This document shows, piece after piece, positions 1 to 26,541 of a stretch of 34,938 nt of DNA (position 1 is its first letter; every line of letters starts with the position of its first letter). Under the pieces are notes generated by a model, which saw nothing but the letters and a program-made list of their open reading frames with translations, searched no databases and was not told the origin of the DNA. The stretch comes from Patescibacteria group bacterium. Its GTDB lineage: Bacteria; Patescibacteriota; Minisyncoccia; UBA6257; GWB1-50-10. The DNA lies in assembly GCA_038061335.1 (NCBI GenBank), contig JBBTZM010000005.1, positions 1-34,938 of the forward strand. The letters are read 5' to 3'. Both the position numbers and the translations under genes were made by a program.

Positions 1-70
1 GAATTTTTGACATGGGTCAATACTACCACACAAATCCTCGCTTCTCAATGCTTTGGCCTTATACAATTCG

Positions 71-100
71 TTGACAAAAAATTATATATCGTGGTATACT
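71..100 (+). promoter_or_regulatory. sigma70-like promoter (TTGACA, 18-nt spacer, TGG-extended TATACT)
   Basis: ttgaca at 71-76 and tgg+tatact at 92-100. The same TGGTAT-type extended -10 recurs at 511-519, 10033-10041, 19889-19897, 22182-22190, 26533-26541 and 27176-27184. Confidence 0.5.
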
Positions 101-104
101 TTCA

Positions 105-328
105 ATGTGAGTAACGTGAGAGAACGTTCACGATGATATCGGCGGACGTTCCCCTCCATCCACCCCCCCTGCCTTTGGCAGGGGGGGTGGTGTTTGCGCC
201 ATGTTTGTCTGCGACCCTGCCAAGGCAGGGGAGCAGCCACAAACATGAGCATCCCGAACCCCGCTTGCGGGGCGAGGGATTTCCTTTGTGATATAATAAA
301 ATCGGGTAGCAGATTTGCGTACTCACAT
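105..328 (+). ncRNA. candidate structured RNA of unknown family (closing stem plus three GC-rich hairpins)
   Basis: Starts 5-7 nt after the -10 box. 105-113 atgtgagta pairs with 320-328 tactcacat. Hairpins at 160-190 (14-bp stem), 200-247 (long stem with tandem GA/GA internal loop and CAAG loop) and 259-272 (CUUG loop). The only ORFs here are short and low-complexity. Confidence 0.4.
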
Positions 329-338
329 CAAATAAAAA

Positions 339-461
339 ATGGAGGCCACCACTGCTGCCCTTCGTTCGGCGGGTCTTAGCCCCTCGAGCGAAGGGAGGCA
401 GAAAGGCGACTTGTCGCAACGCGCTCTACCCGCTACTATACAAGGAGGCCAAATTGGCCTC
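339..461 (+). other. second structured non-coding segment ending in a weak terminator-like hairpin
   Basis: cccttcg (357-363) pairs with cgaaggg about 30 nt downstream. There is a gcga-CTTG-tcgc hairpin near 405. gaggcc/ggcctc hairpin at 445-461 is followed by tttgt. ggaggcc occurs at both 341 and 444. Confidence 0.3.
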
Positions 462-469
462 TTTGTAGT

Positions 470-524
470 ATTTATTCGTATTATTAGTATCATTAGTACC
501 ATTCGTATATTGGTATCATTTTTT
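470..524 (+). repeat. 'tacgaat/attcgta' word-repeat element ending in the conserved motif attcgtatattggtatcat
   Basis: 501-519 is identical to 22172-22190 and 26523-26541. It lies directly upstream of the secA ATG. Confidence 0.8.
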
Positions 525-3068
525 ATGAAATCATTCATCAAAAAACTCATTGAAGGCGACCCCATAAAAAAATACTGGAAGCGGGTCCCGGCGATAAACG
601 CCAAAGAAAAAGAGATAGAATCCCTCTCAGAAGAGGGCCTTTTGGAGCGCTCGAACAAACTGAAAGAAAAAGTTCAAGCGCATGGTATTGCTTCGACAAG
701 CCAAGCAAGTAATCGTTCTATTTTGGACGACGTTCTCCCCGAGGCCTTTGCGCTCGTCCGCGAGGCCGCGAAGCGAACCTTGAAGCAACGCCACTACGAC
801 GTTCAGCTTATTGGCGGCATGGCGATTCACGAGGGCAAGGTTGCCGAGATGCTTACCGGAGAGGGAAAGACGCTTGTCGCGACCCTTCCGATTTATTTGA
901 ACGCGCTTTCGGGCTATGGCGTTCATCTCATAACCGTAAACGACTACCTGGCCCGTCGCGACGCTATCTGGATGGGGCAGGTGTACCACGCGCTCGGAAT
1001 GAGGACTGCTTGCGTCGTGCATGACGCGGCATATATCTACGACCCGGAATTTGAGGGGAGCGAACTGGATGAAAAGAGAGACGAGGTGGCGAGCTTTCAT
1101 ATTATAGAGAAATTTCTGCGTCCCATATCGCGTAAAGACGCCTACGACGCGGATATTACGTATGGCACGAACCATGAATTCGGCTTTGACTTTTTGCGCG
1201 ACAATATCACGCTCGACTTGAAGCACAGAGTTCAGAGAAAGCACCACTACGCGATTATTGACGAAGTGGATTCAATTTTGATTGACGAGGCGCGCACTCC
1301 ACTCATCATCTCCGCGCCGGACGCGGAGTCGAGCGAGTACTACAAAACTTTCGCTCATCTTGTGGAACGCCTGACAAACGATGAGGACTACACGTTCGAG
1401 GAAAAAACCAAGACCGTGAGCATCCTTGAACCGGGCATAGACAAGGTGGAAAAGTTTTTGAATATCCAAAACATCTTTGCGCCGGAACATTCGCGGCTGG
1501 TGCACTTTTTTCAGGAATCCTTGAAGGCAAAATCCCTTTACCTGAAAGACCGCGATTACGTCGTCCACAATGGGGAAATTATTATTGTGGACCAGTTCAC
1601 GGGCCGTATGCTCCACGGCCGTCGCTATTCGGGAGGACTTCATCAGGCAATCGAGGCAAAAGAAAACGTCCGTGTGCGCGAGGAAAACAGAACCTACGCC
1701 ACAATCACGATCCAGAACTACTTCCGCCTCTATAGAAAAATCGCGGGCATGACCGGCACTGCCGAGACCTCTTCCGAAGAATTTTTTAAGGTGTATGGCC
1801 TTGAGGTGGTTTCCATTCCGCCGAACAAGGCCGTGGTTCGCAAGGATATGTCGGACGTGATATACAAAACTCGTGTCGCGAAATACAAGGCGATTGCCGA
1901 AGACGTAAAGGCAAGAATGGGAAAAGGCCAGCCCGTGCTTCTCGGCACGACCTCTATTGAACACAACGAAGTCCTCGCGACTTTTCTTCGCAAAGAGGGG
2001 ATTCCGTACGAAATTTTGAACGCGAAAAACCACGAACGCGAGGGAGAAATTATCGCGCAGGCCGGGCGACCCGGCGCGGTAACGGTTGCCACAAACATGG
2101 CGGGTCGCGGCGTGGATATCGTCCTTGGCGGGAATCCGGGCACGCCGGAAGATAAAAAGAAGGTTATAGAGGCGGGCGGGCTTCATGTCATAGGTACCGA
2201 GCGGCACGAGGCCCGGCGCATTGATAACCAGTTGCGGGGCCGCTCCGGCAGGCAGGGCGACCCGGGCTCAAGCCAATTTTATCTTTCGCTTGAGGACGAC
2301 TTAATGCGCATCTTCGGCGGAGAGCGGCTCATTGGCCTTATGAACACGCTGAAGGTTCCGGATGACCAGCCAATCGAGAGCGGCATGGTTTCAAAATCCA
2401 TCAATCAGGCGCAGTCGCGCGTGGAAGGTAATAATTTCGATATTCGGAAGCACTTGCTCGAATACGACGACGTCCTCACCCGCCAGCGCACCGCCGTGTA
2501 CGCGAAACGGGAAAAGCTATTAAACGCAGGAGACGAGAACACGATCCTGCCGCAGGCGATTGAATTCGCGGAAAGCGCGATTCGTGACGGAGAGATGATT
2601 GTGGAGCAGATGAACGCTGCGGGAGAGGCCACAGAGAAAATCGAGCACCACAAGAGTCAGCTTGAAGACGCGAAGCGTCGGTTAGGAATTTTTCCGGAAA
2701 AAATCGAAGATGAGAGAGCGAAAGCAATCGCCCAGTCCCTGGTCCGGGTCATTGACTCCCTCTGGGTGGACCATCTGGAGTATCTGGAGTCCCTCCGCGA
2801 GTCCGTAGGTATTCGCGCTTACGGCCAGAGGGAGCCCTTAATTGAGTATCGCAAGGAAGCGCACGTCCTCTACCAGAGCATGCAGAAAAACTTTGAACAT
2901 CTTGGAGGCAGTATCGTGTTCCAGCTTATACACGCGGATCTCTCTAGAACCAAGCCCGTGGAGGAAACACCGCGCCTCGCGATTCCGGGAGGCAAAGATA
3001 AAGTGGGCCGCAATGCTCCCTGCCCGTGCGGAAGCGGGAAGAAGTACAAGAGGTGCCACGGGGCATAA
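525..3068 (+). CDS. secA: preprotein translocase ATPase SecA
   Basis: The ORF runs 339..3068, but the SecA-like N-terminus begins at the ATG at 525 (MKSFIKKLIEGDP...). Contains MLTGEGKTLVATLP Walker A, DEVDSILIDEARTPLIIS and the C-terminal zinc motif CPCGSGKKYKRCHG. Confidence 0.97.
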   Translation: MKSFIKKLIEGDPIKKYWKRVPAINAKEKEIESLSEEGLLERSNKLKEKVQAHGIASTSQASNRSILDDVLPEAFALVREAAKRTLKQRHYDVQLIGGMAIHEGKVAEMLTGEGKTLVATLPIYLNALSGYGVHLITVNDYLARRDAIWMGQVYHALGMRTACVVHDAAYIYDPEFEGSELDEKRDEVASFHIIEKFLRPISRKDAYDADITYGTNHEFGFDFLRDNITLDLKHRVQRKHHYAIIDEVDSILIDEARTPLIISAPDAESSEYYKTFAHLVERLTNDEDYTFEEKTKTVSILEPGIDKVEKFLNIQNIFAPEHSRLVHFFQESLKAKSLYLKDRDYVVHNGEIIIVDQFTGRMLHGRRYSGGLHQAIEAKENVRVREENRTYATITIQNYFRLYRKIAGMTGTAETSSEEFFKVYGLEVVSIPPNKAVVRKDMSDVIYKTRVAKYKAIAEDVKARMGKGQPVLLGTTSIEHNEVLATFLRKEGIPYEILNAKNHEREGEIIAQAGRPGAVTVATNMAGRGVDIVLGGNPGTPEDKKKVIEAGGLHVIGTERHEARRIDNQLRGRSGRQGDPGSSQFYLSLEDDLMRIFGGERLIGLMNTLKVPDDQPIESGMVSKSINQAQSRVEGNNFDIRKHLLEYDDVLTRQRTAVYAKREKLLNAGDENTILPQAIEFAESAIRDGEMIVEQMNAAGEATEKIEHHKSQLEDAKRRLGIFPEKIEDERAKAIAQSLVRVIDSLWVDHLEYLESLRESVGIRAYGQREPLIEYRKEAHVLYQSMQKNFEHLGGSIVFQLIHADLSRTKPVEETPRLAIPGGKDKVGRNAPCPCGSGKKYKRCHGA

Positions 3069-3234: not shown

Positions 3235-3696
3235 ATGGCAACGATTCAACGATTTGAGGACCTCGTGTGTTGGCAAAAATCGCGCCTTCTCGTAAGAGAA
3301 ATATATAAAGCAATGCAAGGCTGTAAAGATTACGGTTTCCGTGACCAGATTCAGCGTGCCGCGGTGTCCGTTTTATCCAACATCGCGGAAGGATTCGAAA
3401 GAGGAACAAAACAAGAATTTTTGAACTATCTCTATATCGCAAAAGGGTCCGCGGGCGAAGTCCGCGCTCAATTATACGTTGCCCTGGATGTCGGCCATAT
3501 AAATATTGAAACATTTACATATTTAAGTGGTCTTGCGCTCGATTGCTCCCGCCTCATACAAAGTTTCGCGGAGAAAGTAAAAGGCGGCTCAAGGCAGGGG
3601 ATGCAATGTAAGCCCGTACAAAAGCCCGACCCCGTAAAGGAGATAATAAAGGAAATGACCCCGGAGGTGTATAAGAGATTTTACAAAGACGAATAA
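3235..3696 (+). CDS. four-helix-bundle protein (23S rRNA intervening-sequence protein family)
   Basis: Family-typical sequence: FEDLVCWQKSRLLVREIY...RDQIQRAAVSVLSNIAEGFERGTKQEFLNYLYIAKGSAGEVRAQLYVA. Confidence 0.8.
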   Translation: MATIQRFEDLVCWQKSRLLVREIYKAMQGCKDYGFRDQIQRAAVSVLSNIAEGFERGTKQEFLNYLYIAKGSAGEVRAQLYVALDVGHINIETFTYLSGLALDCSRLIQSFAEKVKGGSRQGMQCKPVQKPDPVKEIIKEMTPEVYKRFYKDE

Positions 3697-22023: not shown

Positions 22024-22104
22024 GCAAAAGTTGTCCACAGGAGGGCCTATTTACATTTGTGGTAGTTGTGTATAATAGAGATACACAATATAAGATACAA
22101 ATAT

Positions 22105-22190
22105 ACAAATGGTACGAATGATACTAATGATACGAATAAAATTCATTTGTATTATTCGTATCATTAATACAATTCGTATATTGGTATCAT
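22105..22190. repeat. long imperfect inverted repeat of 'tacgaat/attcgta' words upstream of lexA
   Basis: Left arm caaatggtacgaatgatactaatgatacgaataa, right arm ttattcgtatcattaatacaattcgtatattggtatcat. 22149-22193 is nearly identical to 26500-26544. Confidence 0.8.
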
Positions 22191-26405: not shown

Positions 26406-26425
26406 GTGTATATTTTAGCACAAAT

Positions 26426-26541
26426 ATGATACAAATATACTAATGGTACGAATGATACTAATGGATACGAATAATTACGAATGAGAATACAGCAGATTAG
26501 TATTATTCGTATCATTAGTACAATTCGTATATTGGTATCAT
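26426..26541. repeat. long imperfect inverted repeat of 'tacgaat/attcgta' words in a divergent promoter region
   Basis: Left arm atgatacaaatatactaatggtacgaatgatactaatggatacgaataattac, right arm gtattattcgtatcattagtacaattcgtatattggtatcat. Confidence 0.8.

Follow-up and report, generated by a model that had tools for sequence, protein, structure and literature searches.

Two short RNA genes that pair in trans, proposed from comparative analysis of the DNA upstream of secA in a Kaiserbacteria-type member of the Patescibacteria

The locus considered here raises the question of what is transcribed from the DNA that precedes secA at the beginning of a 34,938-nucleotide (nt) stretch of a Patescibacteria group bacterium (assembly GCA_038061335.1, contig JBBTZM010000005.1, forward strand; the whole stretch is called the window below). 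A preliminary description, made from the letters alone, had proposed one promoter-driven, multi-hairpin RNA of about 220 nt, closed by pairing of 105-113 with 320-328. Judged by comparison with relatives, the locus is instead the Kaiserbacteria-type copy of an undescribed, order-wide system of two RNA genes, which we call RNA-1 and RNA-2. The two RNAs very probably pair with each other in trans. The wider reading, in which they pair in trans and have a regulatory role, with RNA-1 as a small RNA (sRNA) that controls a leader hairpin in RNA-2, is given a rough probability of 0.55 as a whole statement. The source genome is a 0.67-Mb assembly of 101 contigs that is 90% complete. Its SecA is nearest (86% identity) to that of a groundwater Candidatus Kaiserbacteria metagenome-assembled genome, with further relatives in Parcubacteria/Paceibacterota, and the comparison set comprised more than 70 related Parcubacteria genomes, Candidatus Kaiserbacteria being the closest.

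The region is highly structured and unevenly conserved. The fold of 105-328 reached −120.2 kcal/mol compared with −75.5 ± 4.8 kcal/mol for dinucleotide shuffles (z = −9.4; 0 of 200 shuffles equal), and the fold of 100-530 had a z of −10.4. The three hairpins described at 160-190 (14 bp), 200-247 and 259-272 were all found at these positions in the minimum-free-energy fold. Relatives share the promoter, the pairing of 105-113 with 320-328 and the 160-190 hairpin, and the conservation of hairpins 200-247 and 259-272 reaches the genus at most. The expectation that the closing stem and all three hairpins would covary was borne out in part: 105-113/320-328 covaries and 160-190 recurs, whereas 200-247 and 259-272 belong to an unconserved spacer. 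DNA similarity to the region was confined to a few genera and to two islands, at about 91-214 and 273-364 of the window. The aligned upstream regions of five genera share one plan: a promoter, the 5' sequence GUGAGU(G), a hairpin whose apex is CGAUGAUAUCGG, the segment CCUCCAU, a GC hairpin followed by a U-tract, a variable stretch, a TATAAT box and a hairpin with GCGYACUCAC...AAAAAUGGAGGUCACCA in its loop.

The features of RNA-1 in the window are as follows.

71-100, forward strand: promoter of RNA-1, with −35 box TTGACA (71-76), 18-nt spacer and extended −10 box TGgTATACT (92-100); score 11/12, with TG
105-196, forward strand: RNA-1, predicted length about 92 nt; covariance model match at 109-175; same architecture in 69 genomes
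105-113, forward strand: segment A (AUGUGAGUA; kept core GUGAGU at 107-112), the single-stranded 5' end, which pairs with A' at 320-328 (UACUCACAU)
122-151, forward strand: hairpin P2 (122-129/144-151; apex stem 131-134/138-141; conserved apex CGAUGAUAUCGG at 131-142), which covaries
153-159, forward strand: segment B/X, CCUCCAU, partner of AUGGAGG (339-345) and lengthened in other families by a block X of 9-12 nt
160-196, forward strand: intrinsic terminator T, with a 14-bp GC stem (160-190) and the tail UGUUUG (191-196)

The near-consensus promoter that had been claimed at 71-100 is indeed present, and a promoter scoring at least 9/12 stood at the same place in 49 of the 69 RNA-1 copies, compared with 3% of random positions. 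The transcript would start 5-7 nt past the −10 box and end at the U-rich tail of the terminator. Hairpin 160-190, previously one element of a single RNA, would be the intrinsic terminator of an RNA of about 90 nt; at least 58 of the 69 copies have, right behind the X segment, a hairpin and U-tract of this kind (median 14 bp and −21.6 kcal/mol). In P2, 92.6% of cells were paired, 12 of 13 pairs showed double-sided changes, and covariation was 0.508 against 0.200 in shuffled controls (0/500), with a nearly invariant, unpaired apex CGAYGAYRUCGA. The AUG-UGA at the 5' end, which had been mentioned as perhaps coincidental, is so, for relatives begin GUGAGUG or GAAUGAGUG.

The conserved second half was assigned to RNA-2, with these features.

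289-297, forward strand: extended −10 box TGaTATAAT of RNA-2 (TATAAT at 292-297)
303-475, forward strand: RNA-2, comprising hairpin C (loop conserved), two further hairpins, one alternative and one small, and a terminator; covariance model match at 303-361; predicted 3' end
304-360, forward strand: hairpin C, formed by S1 GGGUAGCAG (304-312) and S2 CUGCUGCCC (352-360), with a 39-nt loop
317-328, forward strand: A' (GCGUACUCACAU; conserved G[CU]ACUCA[CU]), partner of the 5' end of RNA-1
339-351, forward strand: B' and the conserved box AUGGAGGCCACCA (order-wide consensus UGGAGGUCACC), whose GGAGG pairs with CCUCC/CCCUU of RNA-1
352-401, forward strand: alternative hairpin of S2 with the downstream S3, −35 kcal/mol, which excludes hairpin C and has no U-tract in the window
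439-477, forward strand: terminator-like 13-bp hairpin (439-467) followed by a U-rich tail, conserved in the related loci L002 and L003

A second conserved promoter, with its −10 box at 292-297, thus points to an RNA that would begin at about 303, and the interval 105-328 leaves out most of the conserved second half, namely hairpin 304-360, the GGAGGYCACC box and the hairpins that extend to about 475. The −10 box ends about 5-8 nt 5' of the hairpin in nearly all short-stem copies of RNA-2 and likewise in five that are unlinked to RNA-1 (G144, G058, G084, G029 and G097). Promoter scores of at least 9 were obtained for 33% of copies and 3% of random positions, and two genomes (G117 and G169) carry perfect TTGACA-N16-TATAAT promoters before RNA-2. 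Support for hairpin C is extensive: 96.3% of cells were paired, 10 of 10 pairs were changed on both sides, covariation reached 0.935 compared with 0.260 after shuffling (0/500), and slid controls were at most 51% paired. Its loop carries UACUCAC and AUGGAGGCCACC. Among 32 aligned copies of the box, GGAGG and CACC were invariant and the U almost so; UCACC after GGAGG and a purine-rich stretch 5' of A' are nearly invariant and unpaired. Of 72 genomes, 41 have a predicted S2:S3 alternative; the hairpin is strong (−20 to −52 kcal/mol) in about 30 of them, and a U-tract follows it in 13 genomes, just about 9 of them with strong hairpins. In addition, the 5' arm of the 439-467 hairpin repeats the GGAGGCC box (444-450 compared with 341-347), a duplication also present in L002 and L003, and the 3' arm of this hairpin, or CCUCC of RNA-1, could pair with either copy. 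Six other loci (L051, L057, L058, L062, L037 and L048) have two or three partial tandem loop modules (GGAGAGCACUCAUUC..., some with an X' block) around RNA-2; such modules would be extra docking sites for RNA-1.

The statement that the region holds no credible open reading frame (ORF) was also agreed with, since the frame that runs from ATG 339 into secA is open by accident. Translation from this ATG, in frame with secA and with a 'MEVTT' recurring in relatives, was considered and rejected: AUGGAGG is one strand of a covarying helix and the next codons are S2, while some relatives have TTG or an inserted U instead of the ATG, and others have a closed frame.

For the pairing between the two RNAs, the A:A' counts, like those for linkage, cover the 69 genomes with both RNAs. 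The 105-113 and 320-328 segments are, as first noticed, complementary nonamers, and the helix is kept and covaries in relatives. In cognate pairs 94.8% of the A:A' cells were paired, compared with 89.6 ± 0.5% when partners were shuffled, a value that 0 of 1000 shuffles reached. The core of A:A' is invariant, one position switches between AU (30 genomes) and GC (31 genomes), and locus L006 has a compensatory 3-nt insertion in both strands. The duplex of the window has −12.0 kcal/mol; on average, cognate A:A' duplexes had −15.4 kcal/mol and those with partners from other families −12.8 kcal/mol, and the difference was larger for X:X' (−14.1 compared with −8.6 kcal/mol; 0/5000 permutations in each case). 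Many distinct compensatory variants of X:X' were found, including CUAUUUGUA/UACAAAUAG, CGAUUUGUA/UACAAAUCG, UUCUGUUUG/CAAACAGAA, UUCUUUUUG/CAAAAAGAA and AUUAUACAUUG/CAAUGUAUAAU. The family of the window has an A-rich run in place of the X block, which leaves CCUCCAU:AUGGAGG alone (−11.1 kcal/mol), and locus L007 shows a compensatory insertion, CCAAU/AUUGG, in B:B'. The blocks follow one another in equal order on both molecules, A' and then X' with UGGAGG in the loop, A and then X with CCUCC/CCCUU before the terminator in RNA-1; the contact is therefore not a colinear duplex, and two helices would meet at a junction with hairpin C. RNAcofold of both window RNAs gave no gain for the core, which is expected because folding restricted to nested structures cannot represent docking on a loop.

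The arrangement of the two genes shows how this pairing would take place. In 56 of the 69 genomes RNA-1 and RNA-2 form a same-strand tandem with 47-561 nt between them. Seven genomes have them on separate contigs or at a distance of 2-64 kb, six have them on opposite strands, and in one genome a small ORF is inserted between them; a single transcript cannot explain these arrangements. Unlinked pairs were as complementary as tandem ones (−17.8, −15.4, −18.3 and −15.2 kcal/mol in G144, G105, G084 and G068, respectively); the first three rank with the best pairs, and for each of them 0 of 65 foreign partners were as good as the cognate one. Because complementarity still covaries between partners that are unlinked or on opposite strands, the pairing is attributed with high confidence to two molecules acting in trans. 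The one domain of about 220 nt in the preliminary description thus gives way to two separate RNAs; its observation is confirmed and its single-RNA interpretation is partly supported.

Both genes are single copy. Of 401 genomes of the order, 97 contained an exact pattern for the second island, ACTCA-N8-30-TGGAGGYCACCA, each of them a single time, while the reversed control gave 1 match. With covariance models built for RNA-1 (model R2) and for hairpin C and the loop of RNA-2 (model R1), RNA-2 was found exactly once per genome in 98 of 151 order genomes and in 8 of about 117 genomes of the class outside the order, where copies have a slightly different box (UUGGAGU...); among sampled genomes of the phylum beyond the class, the RNA-2 model had no match. 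RNA-1 had one copy per genome wherever its model matched, in 47 of 151 order genomes. The model is a weak one. None of the 7 other sampled genomes from the family of the window (f1) was matched by it, although RNA-1 can be seen by eye in the five f1 relatives inspected.

The position of RNA-2 relative to genes was also consistent. It lies on the same strand and 18-340 nt before murB (then hpf), hpf (then secA) or secA in 57 of 72 genomes checked, and this applies to 6 of the 7 genomes with unlinked RNA-1 (G029, G058, G068, G097, G105 and G144). Gene identities were checked with Pfam (Ribosomal_S30AE for hpf, FAD_binding_4 for the N-terminus of MurB, and SecA domains); the placements of secA in relatives rest on ORF translations with Pfam, those based on queries being weak. 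The distance from RNA-2 to the start codon is 20-100 nt in most genomes, and RNA-2 would therefore be the 5' leader of the operon in most of them. Neither murB nor hpf is adjacent to the locus in the window, and partial queries for both gave no match in its assembly. Taken together, the comparative evidence demonstrates two single-copy genes, a complementarity in trans with compensatory change, and a position of RNA-2 at the head of a murB-hpf-secA cluster; for transcript starts, ends and abundance, and for the direction and level of regulation, we infer from sequence signals.

The reading that we favor can be put as follows. RNA-1 would be a stand-alone sRNA with its own sigma-70 promoter and intrinsic terminator, in which two single-stranded segments flank a conserved hairpin, and RNA-2 would start at its own promoter with hairpin C, whose large loop presents UACUCAC and AUGGAGG. 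Both helices, which measure about 9 + 7 bp in the window and reach about 10 + 15 bp in relatives, would serve to dock RNA-1 in trans on this loop, and hairpin C would become a three-way junction that leaves UCACC and the hairpin apex of RNA-1 unpaired. Docking would lock hairpin C against the S2:S3 hairpin that shares its 3' strand and is a terminator in some lineages, and the outcome would be altered read-through, processing or translation of the operon; intermolecular helices of 10-15 bp would be RNase III substrates. The covariation of S1 with S2, although the S2:S3 alternative exists, is a hallmark of a switch. Several points weigh on the other side. First, more than half of the genomes are without a strong competing hairpin, and only 13 of 72 have a U-tract behind the hairpin, so that attenuation cannot be the universal mechanism. 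Second, the RNA-1 model matches just the 47 of 151 genomes given above, partly through low sensitivity. Third, secA in the window has its own leaderless promoter 3' of a terminator; any control of secA would therefore be weaker or lost here, where RNA-2 looks like an independent transcript. Fourth, a family lacking adjacent murB and hpf keeps both RNAs (7 of 7 genomes). Finally, the invariant, unpaired UCACC and CGAUGAUAUCGA apex are odd for a simple antisense pair and suggest a protein partner or a tertiary fold.

A further idea takes up this last point. RNA-1 and RNA-2 might form a trans-assembled, riboswitch-like three-way junction, a split aptamer or ribonucleoprotein (RNP) core, in which UCACC, the junction purines and the CGAUGAUAUCGA apex bind a protein or ligand; we consider it possible and rather doubtful. 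If true, it would link murB (wall synthesis), hpf (hibernation) and secA (secretion) with a growth signal in organisms whose ribosomes are without an anti-Shine-Dalgarno (anti-SD) sequence, and it would be a new class of two-gene structured RNA, beyond an ordinary antisense pair.

The conserved GGAGG invites a comparison with Shine-Dalgarno (SD) sequences. The 3' tails of 16S rRNA (loci L220-L245) end GGAWCAAUUAAAYU-like, without CCUCC, in 20 of the 21 that were readable, and one family keeps CCUCC; a loss of this anti-SD sequence had been published before for a subgroup of Parcubacteria (PMC9297842). SD-like motifs are depleted upstream of ORFs in the genome of the window (46 of 423 compared with a background of 85 of 423). 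A classical masking model, in which GGAGG is an SD sequence covered by CCUCC of RNA-1, is unlikely because CCUCC has been lost from the 16S rRNA of the order and SD-like motifs are depleted; it was rejected as a general mechanism also in view of the missing start codon after the box. Other roles for the conserved segments were rejected as well. As a mimic of the CCA end of tRNA the box fails on its last base, which varies among relatives (ACCA, ACCC, ACCU and ACCG), and when the 10-mer GGTGACCTCC was used to look for a conserved trans partner of the box, most matches were RNA-2 itself, read on the other strand. Likenesses of X in RNA-1 to the 3' tail of 16S rRNA, and of ACUCAC in RNA-2 to 16S GUACUCACC, were suggestive in a single genome (G033) and were judged a coincidence: the tails of 20 other genomes are unlike X, and the covarying position of A:A' departs from an invariant 16S base. 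As separate observations on 16S rRNA, the universally conserved stretch GUACACACCGCCCGUC reads GUACUCACCGCCCGUC in this order, and three 16S genes (G052, G021 and G066) have apparent insertions right after GUACUCAC.

The main alternative to sRNA control of a leader hairpin, which we consider possible and rather doubtful, is a two-piece stable non-coding RNA or RNP with a function of its own, a counterpart of raiA/ModT, whose place before murB-hpf-secA would reflect synteny or co-expression and no cis-regulation. To our knowledge, raiA has been reported only from Bacillota and Actinomycetota. In its favor are the single copy in every genome and the invariant, unpaired nucleotides, which are located in the GGAGGUCACC box, at the junction and in the P2 apex (CGAYGAYRUCGA); furthermore, a terminator of its own closes RNA-2 in the window and a separate promoter precedes secA, the pair persists in the family without adjacent murB and hpf, and raiA RNA is likewise single copy, with its own promoter and terminator and tied to raiA/hpf and secA (PMC10861870). 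On the other hand, in most genomes RNA-2 ends so close to the start of murB or hpf (20-100 nt) that a terminator and a promoter would not both fit, so that RNA-2 would there be part of the mRNA, and the S1/S2/S3 arrangement with S1:S2 covariation is typical of a switch. The likeness to raiA/ModT, a single-copy RNA with its own promoter located upstream of raiA/hpf near secA (PMC10861870), is one of context only. That RNA is one molecule of about 160-250 nt with P1-P8, two pseudoknots (PK1 and PK2), a P3/P4 core and a conserved UUAGACGUAA linker (PMC12968392), whereas here there are two RNAs with other conserved sequence; the raiA model (RF03072) had no match at E ≤ 10 in the window or at the homologous loci, and the UUAGACGUAA linker was absent from window 1-540.

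A single contiguous RNA of about 220-360 nt, transcribed from the 71-100 promoter and closed by 105-113/320-328, with helices A, B and C as an intramolecular double pseudoknot, now seems quite improbable. Its contiguous fold is very stable, and the tandem layout in most genomes together with read-through of the first terminator, whose U-tract is weak in the window (UGUUUG), would let the same helices form in cis. Against this, complementarity is intact in the 13 of 69 genomes with unlinked or opposite-strand halves, a canonical terminator and a canonical promoter lie between the halves in most genomes, and the intervening sequence is unconserved.

A divergent member of a known family, namely signal recognition particle (SRP) RNA, transfer-messenger RNA (tmRNA), RNase P RNA, 6S RNA, raiA or a T-box or other riboswitch, is highly improbable, for although SRP RNA and tmRNA were undetected elsewhere in this genome, SRP RNA also in five complete relatives, and the site beside secA and hpf is suggestive, no Rfam family came near its threshold in the window and 17 homologous loci, relatives with this RNA have tmRNA elsewhere (102-137 bits), an RNase P candidate lies on another contig (contig 22), GNRA/AGCA helix-8 motif, T-arm and T-box sequence are missing, and the two-gene architecture fits none of these families.

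The searches behind this judgment agree with the earlier inspection by eye, which had found no convincing signature of RNase P RNA, tmRNA or SRP RNA, and they place the RNA in no routine family. Over the whole window just two tRNAs, both distant, passed the gathering thresholds of Rfam 15. At E ≤ 10, region 1-620 gave sub-threshold chance matches, the best being rli38 with 29 bits compared with a threshold of 49, and the 17 homologous loci gave no match to the RNA pair. A full-text literature search found no paper on this RNA pair. The SRP RNA models (RF00169 and RF01854) had no match at the locus, their best genome score being 15 bits on another contig in apparent coding sequence, and they found no SRP RNA in the genome or in five complete relatives; the GNRA loops at the locus cap plain terminator stems. 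None of 101 order genomes and none of 121 phylum genomes matched the M-domain of Ffh (PF02978), a phylum-wide zero that suggests an insensitive search, and no ORF with SRP-GTPase motifs was found in the assembly. A Saccharibacteria paper mentions SRP, and the absence of SRP from these genomes is not established. ARAGORN found no tmRNA in the genome and RF00023 was without a match at the locus, as were the 6S models. Neither tmRNA (ARAGORN, RF00023) nor smpB (PF01668) was found in the 90%-complete assembly; both probably lie in the unassembled part, relatives having a canonical tmRNA.

Among described systems, the closest functional analogues of the proposed control would be trans-acting sRNAs on leader hairpins, plasmid countertranscript attenuation and the T-box, each of which differs in a defining feature. 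First, DsrA, RprA and ArcZ, which act on the rpoS leader, are likewise separate sRNA genes with a promoter and a Rho-independent terminator and have short, imperfect complementarity to a structured leader, whose fold and downstream expression the pairing is expected to alter. The signals of a trans-encoded sRNA are found here too, as a separate gene with promoter and terminator and as compensatory change that keeps complementarity. In contrast to those sRNAs, RNA-1 would bind an apical loop at two blocks in swapped (non-colinear) order without opening the stem; the pair is kept and covaries across the order and parts of the class, with apparently one dedicated target site; and in a lineage without an anti-SD sequence, masking or unmasking of a ribosome-binding site is not an obvious read-out. 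Second, in CopA-CopT (R1), RNAI-RNAII (ColE1) and the pT181 and pIP501 systems the small RNA touches a leader hairpin at its loop; for pT181 and pIP501 the outcome is a choice of fold, and one of the competing folds is a terminator that precedes the regulated gene. Those RNAs come from the opposite strand and are fully complementary, whereas the present partners are same-strand tandem genes (56 of 69) or unlinked, coevolve in two short blocks and belong to a chromosomal housekeeping locus. Third, in the T-box a trans RNA docks at two leader sites and, as here, two pairings (S1:S2 and S2:S3) compete, with a terminator in some lineages; the effector would here be a dedicated sRNA of about 90 nt in place of a tRNA, and no Stem I, specifier loop, T-box sequence or model match was found in the window or at the homologous loci. 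Two-piece tmRNA also unites two base-paired RNA molecules in one functional structure, but its pieces are cut from one permuted precursor and include tRNA-like and tag-coding parts, whereas two promoters and no tRNA-like domain are found here.

The remaining features around the RNA pair are the following.

197-288, forward strand: spacer with hairpins 200-247 and 259-272, lineage-specific, aligning only with a same-genus relative
470-524, forward strand: repeated promoter element (...GTATATTGGTATCAT + 5 nt) that would drive an essentially leaderless secA, outside the RNA pair
525-3068, forward strand: secA, start ATG 525; Pfam SecA_DEAD at 1.9e-115 and four more SecA domains

At the place of the spacer, other genera have unrelated sequence, an inserted small ORF or nothing. 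The element before secA belongs to a set of 10 genome copies of about 50 nt (...GTATTATTCGTATCATTAGTACCATTCGTATATTGGTATCAT), each 4-7 nt before an ATG and often in divergent pairs; copies are also located at about 22094-22190 and 26422-26541 of the window and on contigs C12, C57, C62, C80 and C88. Its features suggest a strong promoter module of the extended −10 type, preceded by repeated GTATYATT motifs, which would yield leaderless mRNAs, that of secA among them. Beyond secA, a 153-aa ORF at 3235-3696 (MATIQRFEDLVCWQKSRLL...) presumably resembles the four-helix-bundle '23S rRNA intervening-sequence protein' family.

Organisms of the candidate phyla radiation are uncultured and have genomes of about 0.6-0.9 Mb with little room for regulation, and we know of very few non-coding RNAs from them. 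A dedicated sRNA with its target hairpin, single copy in about two thirds of the genomes of the order and present in some sister lineages, would stand out in this setting, and the covariation is clean enough for both RNAs and their contacts to be defined from sequence alone. The pair matches no described RNA family and would add one that is missing from Rfam. Furthermore, with a target that heads genes for wall synthesis, hibernation and export, in a lineage that has lost the anti-SD sequence and makes heavy use of leaderless mRNAs, the system may be a plausible point for the control of growth state.

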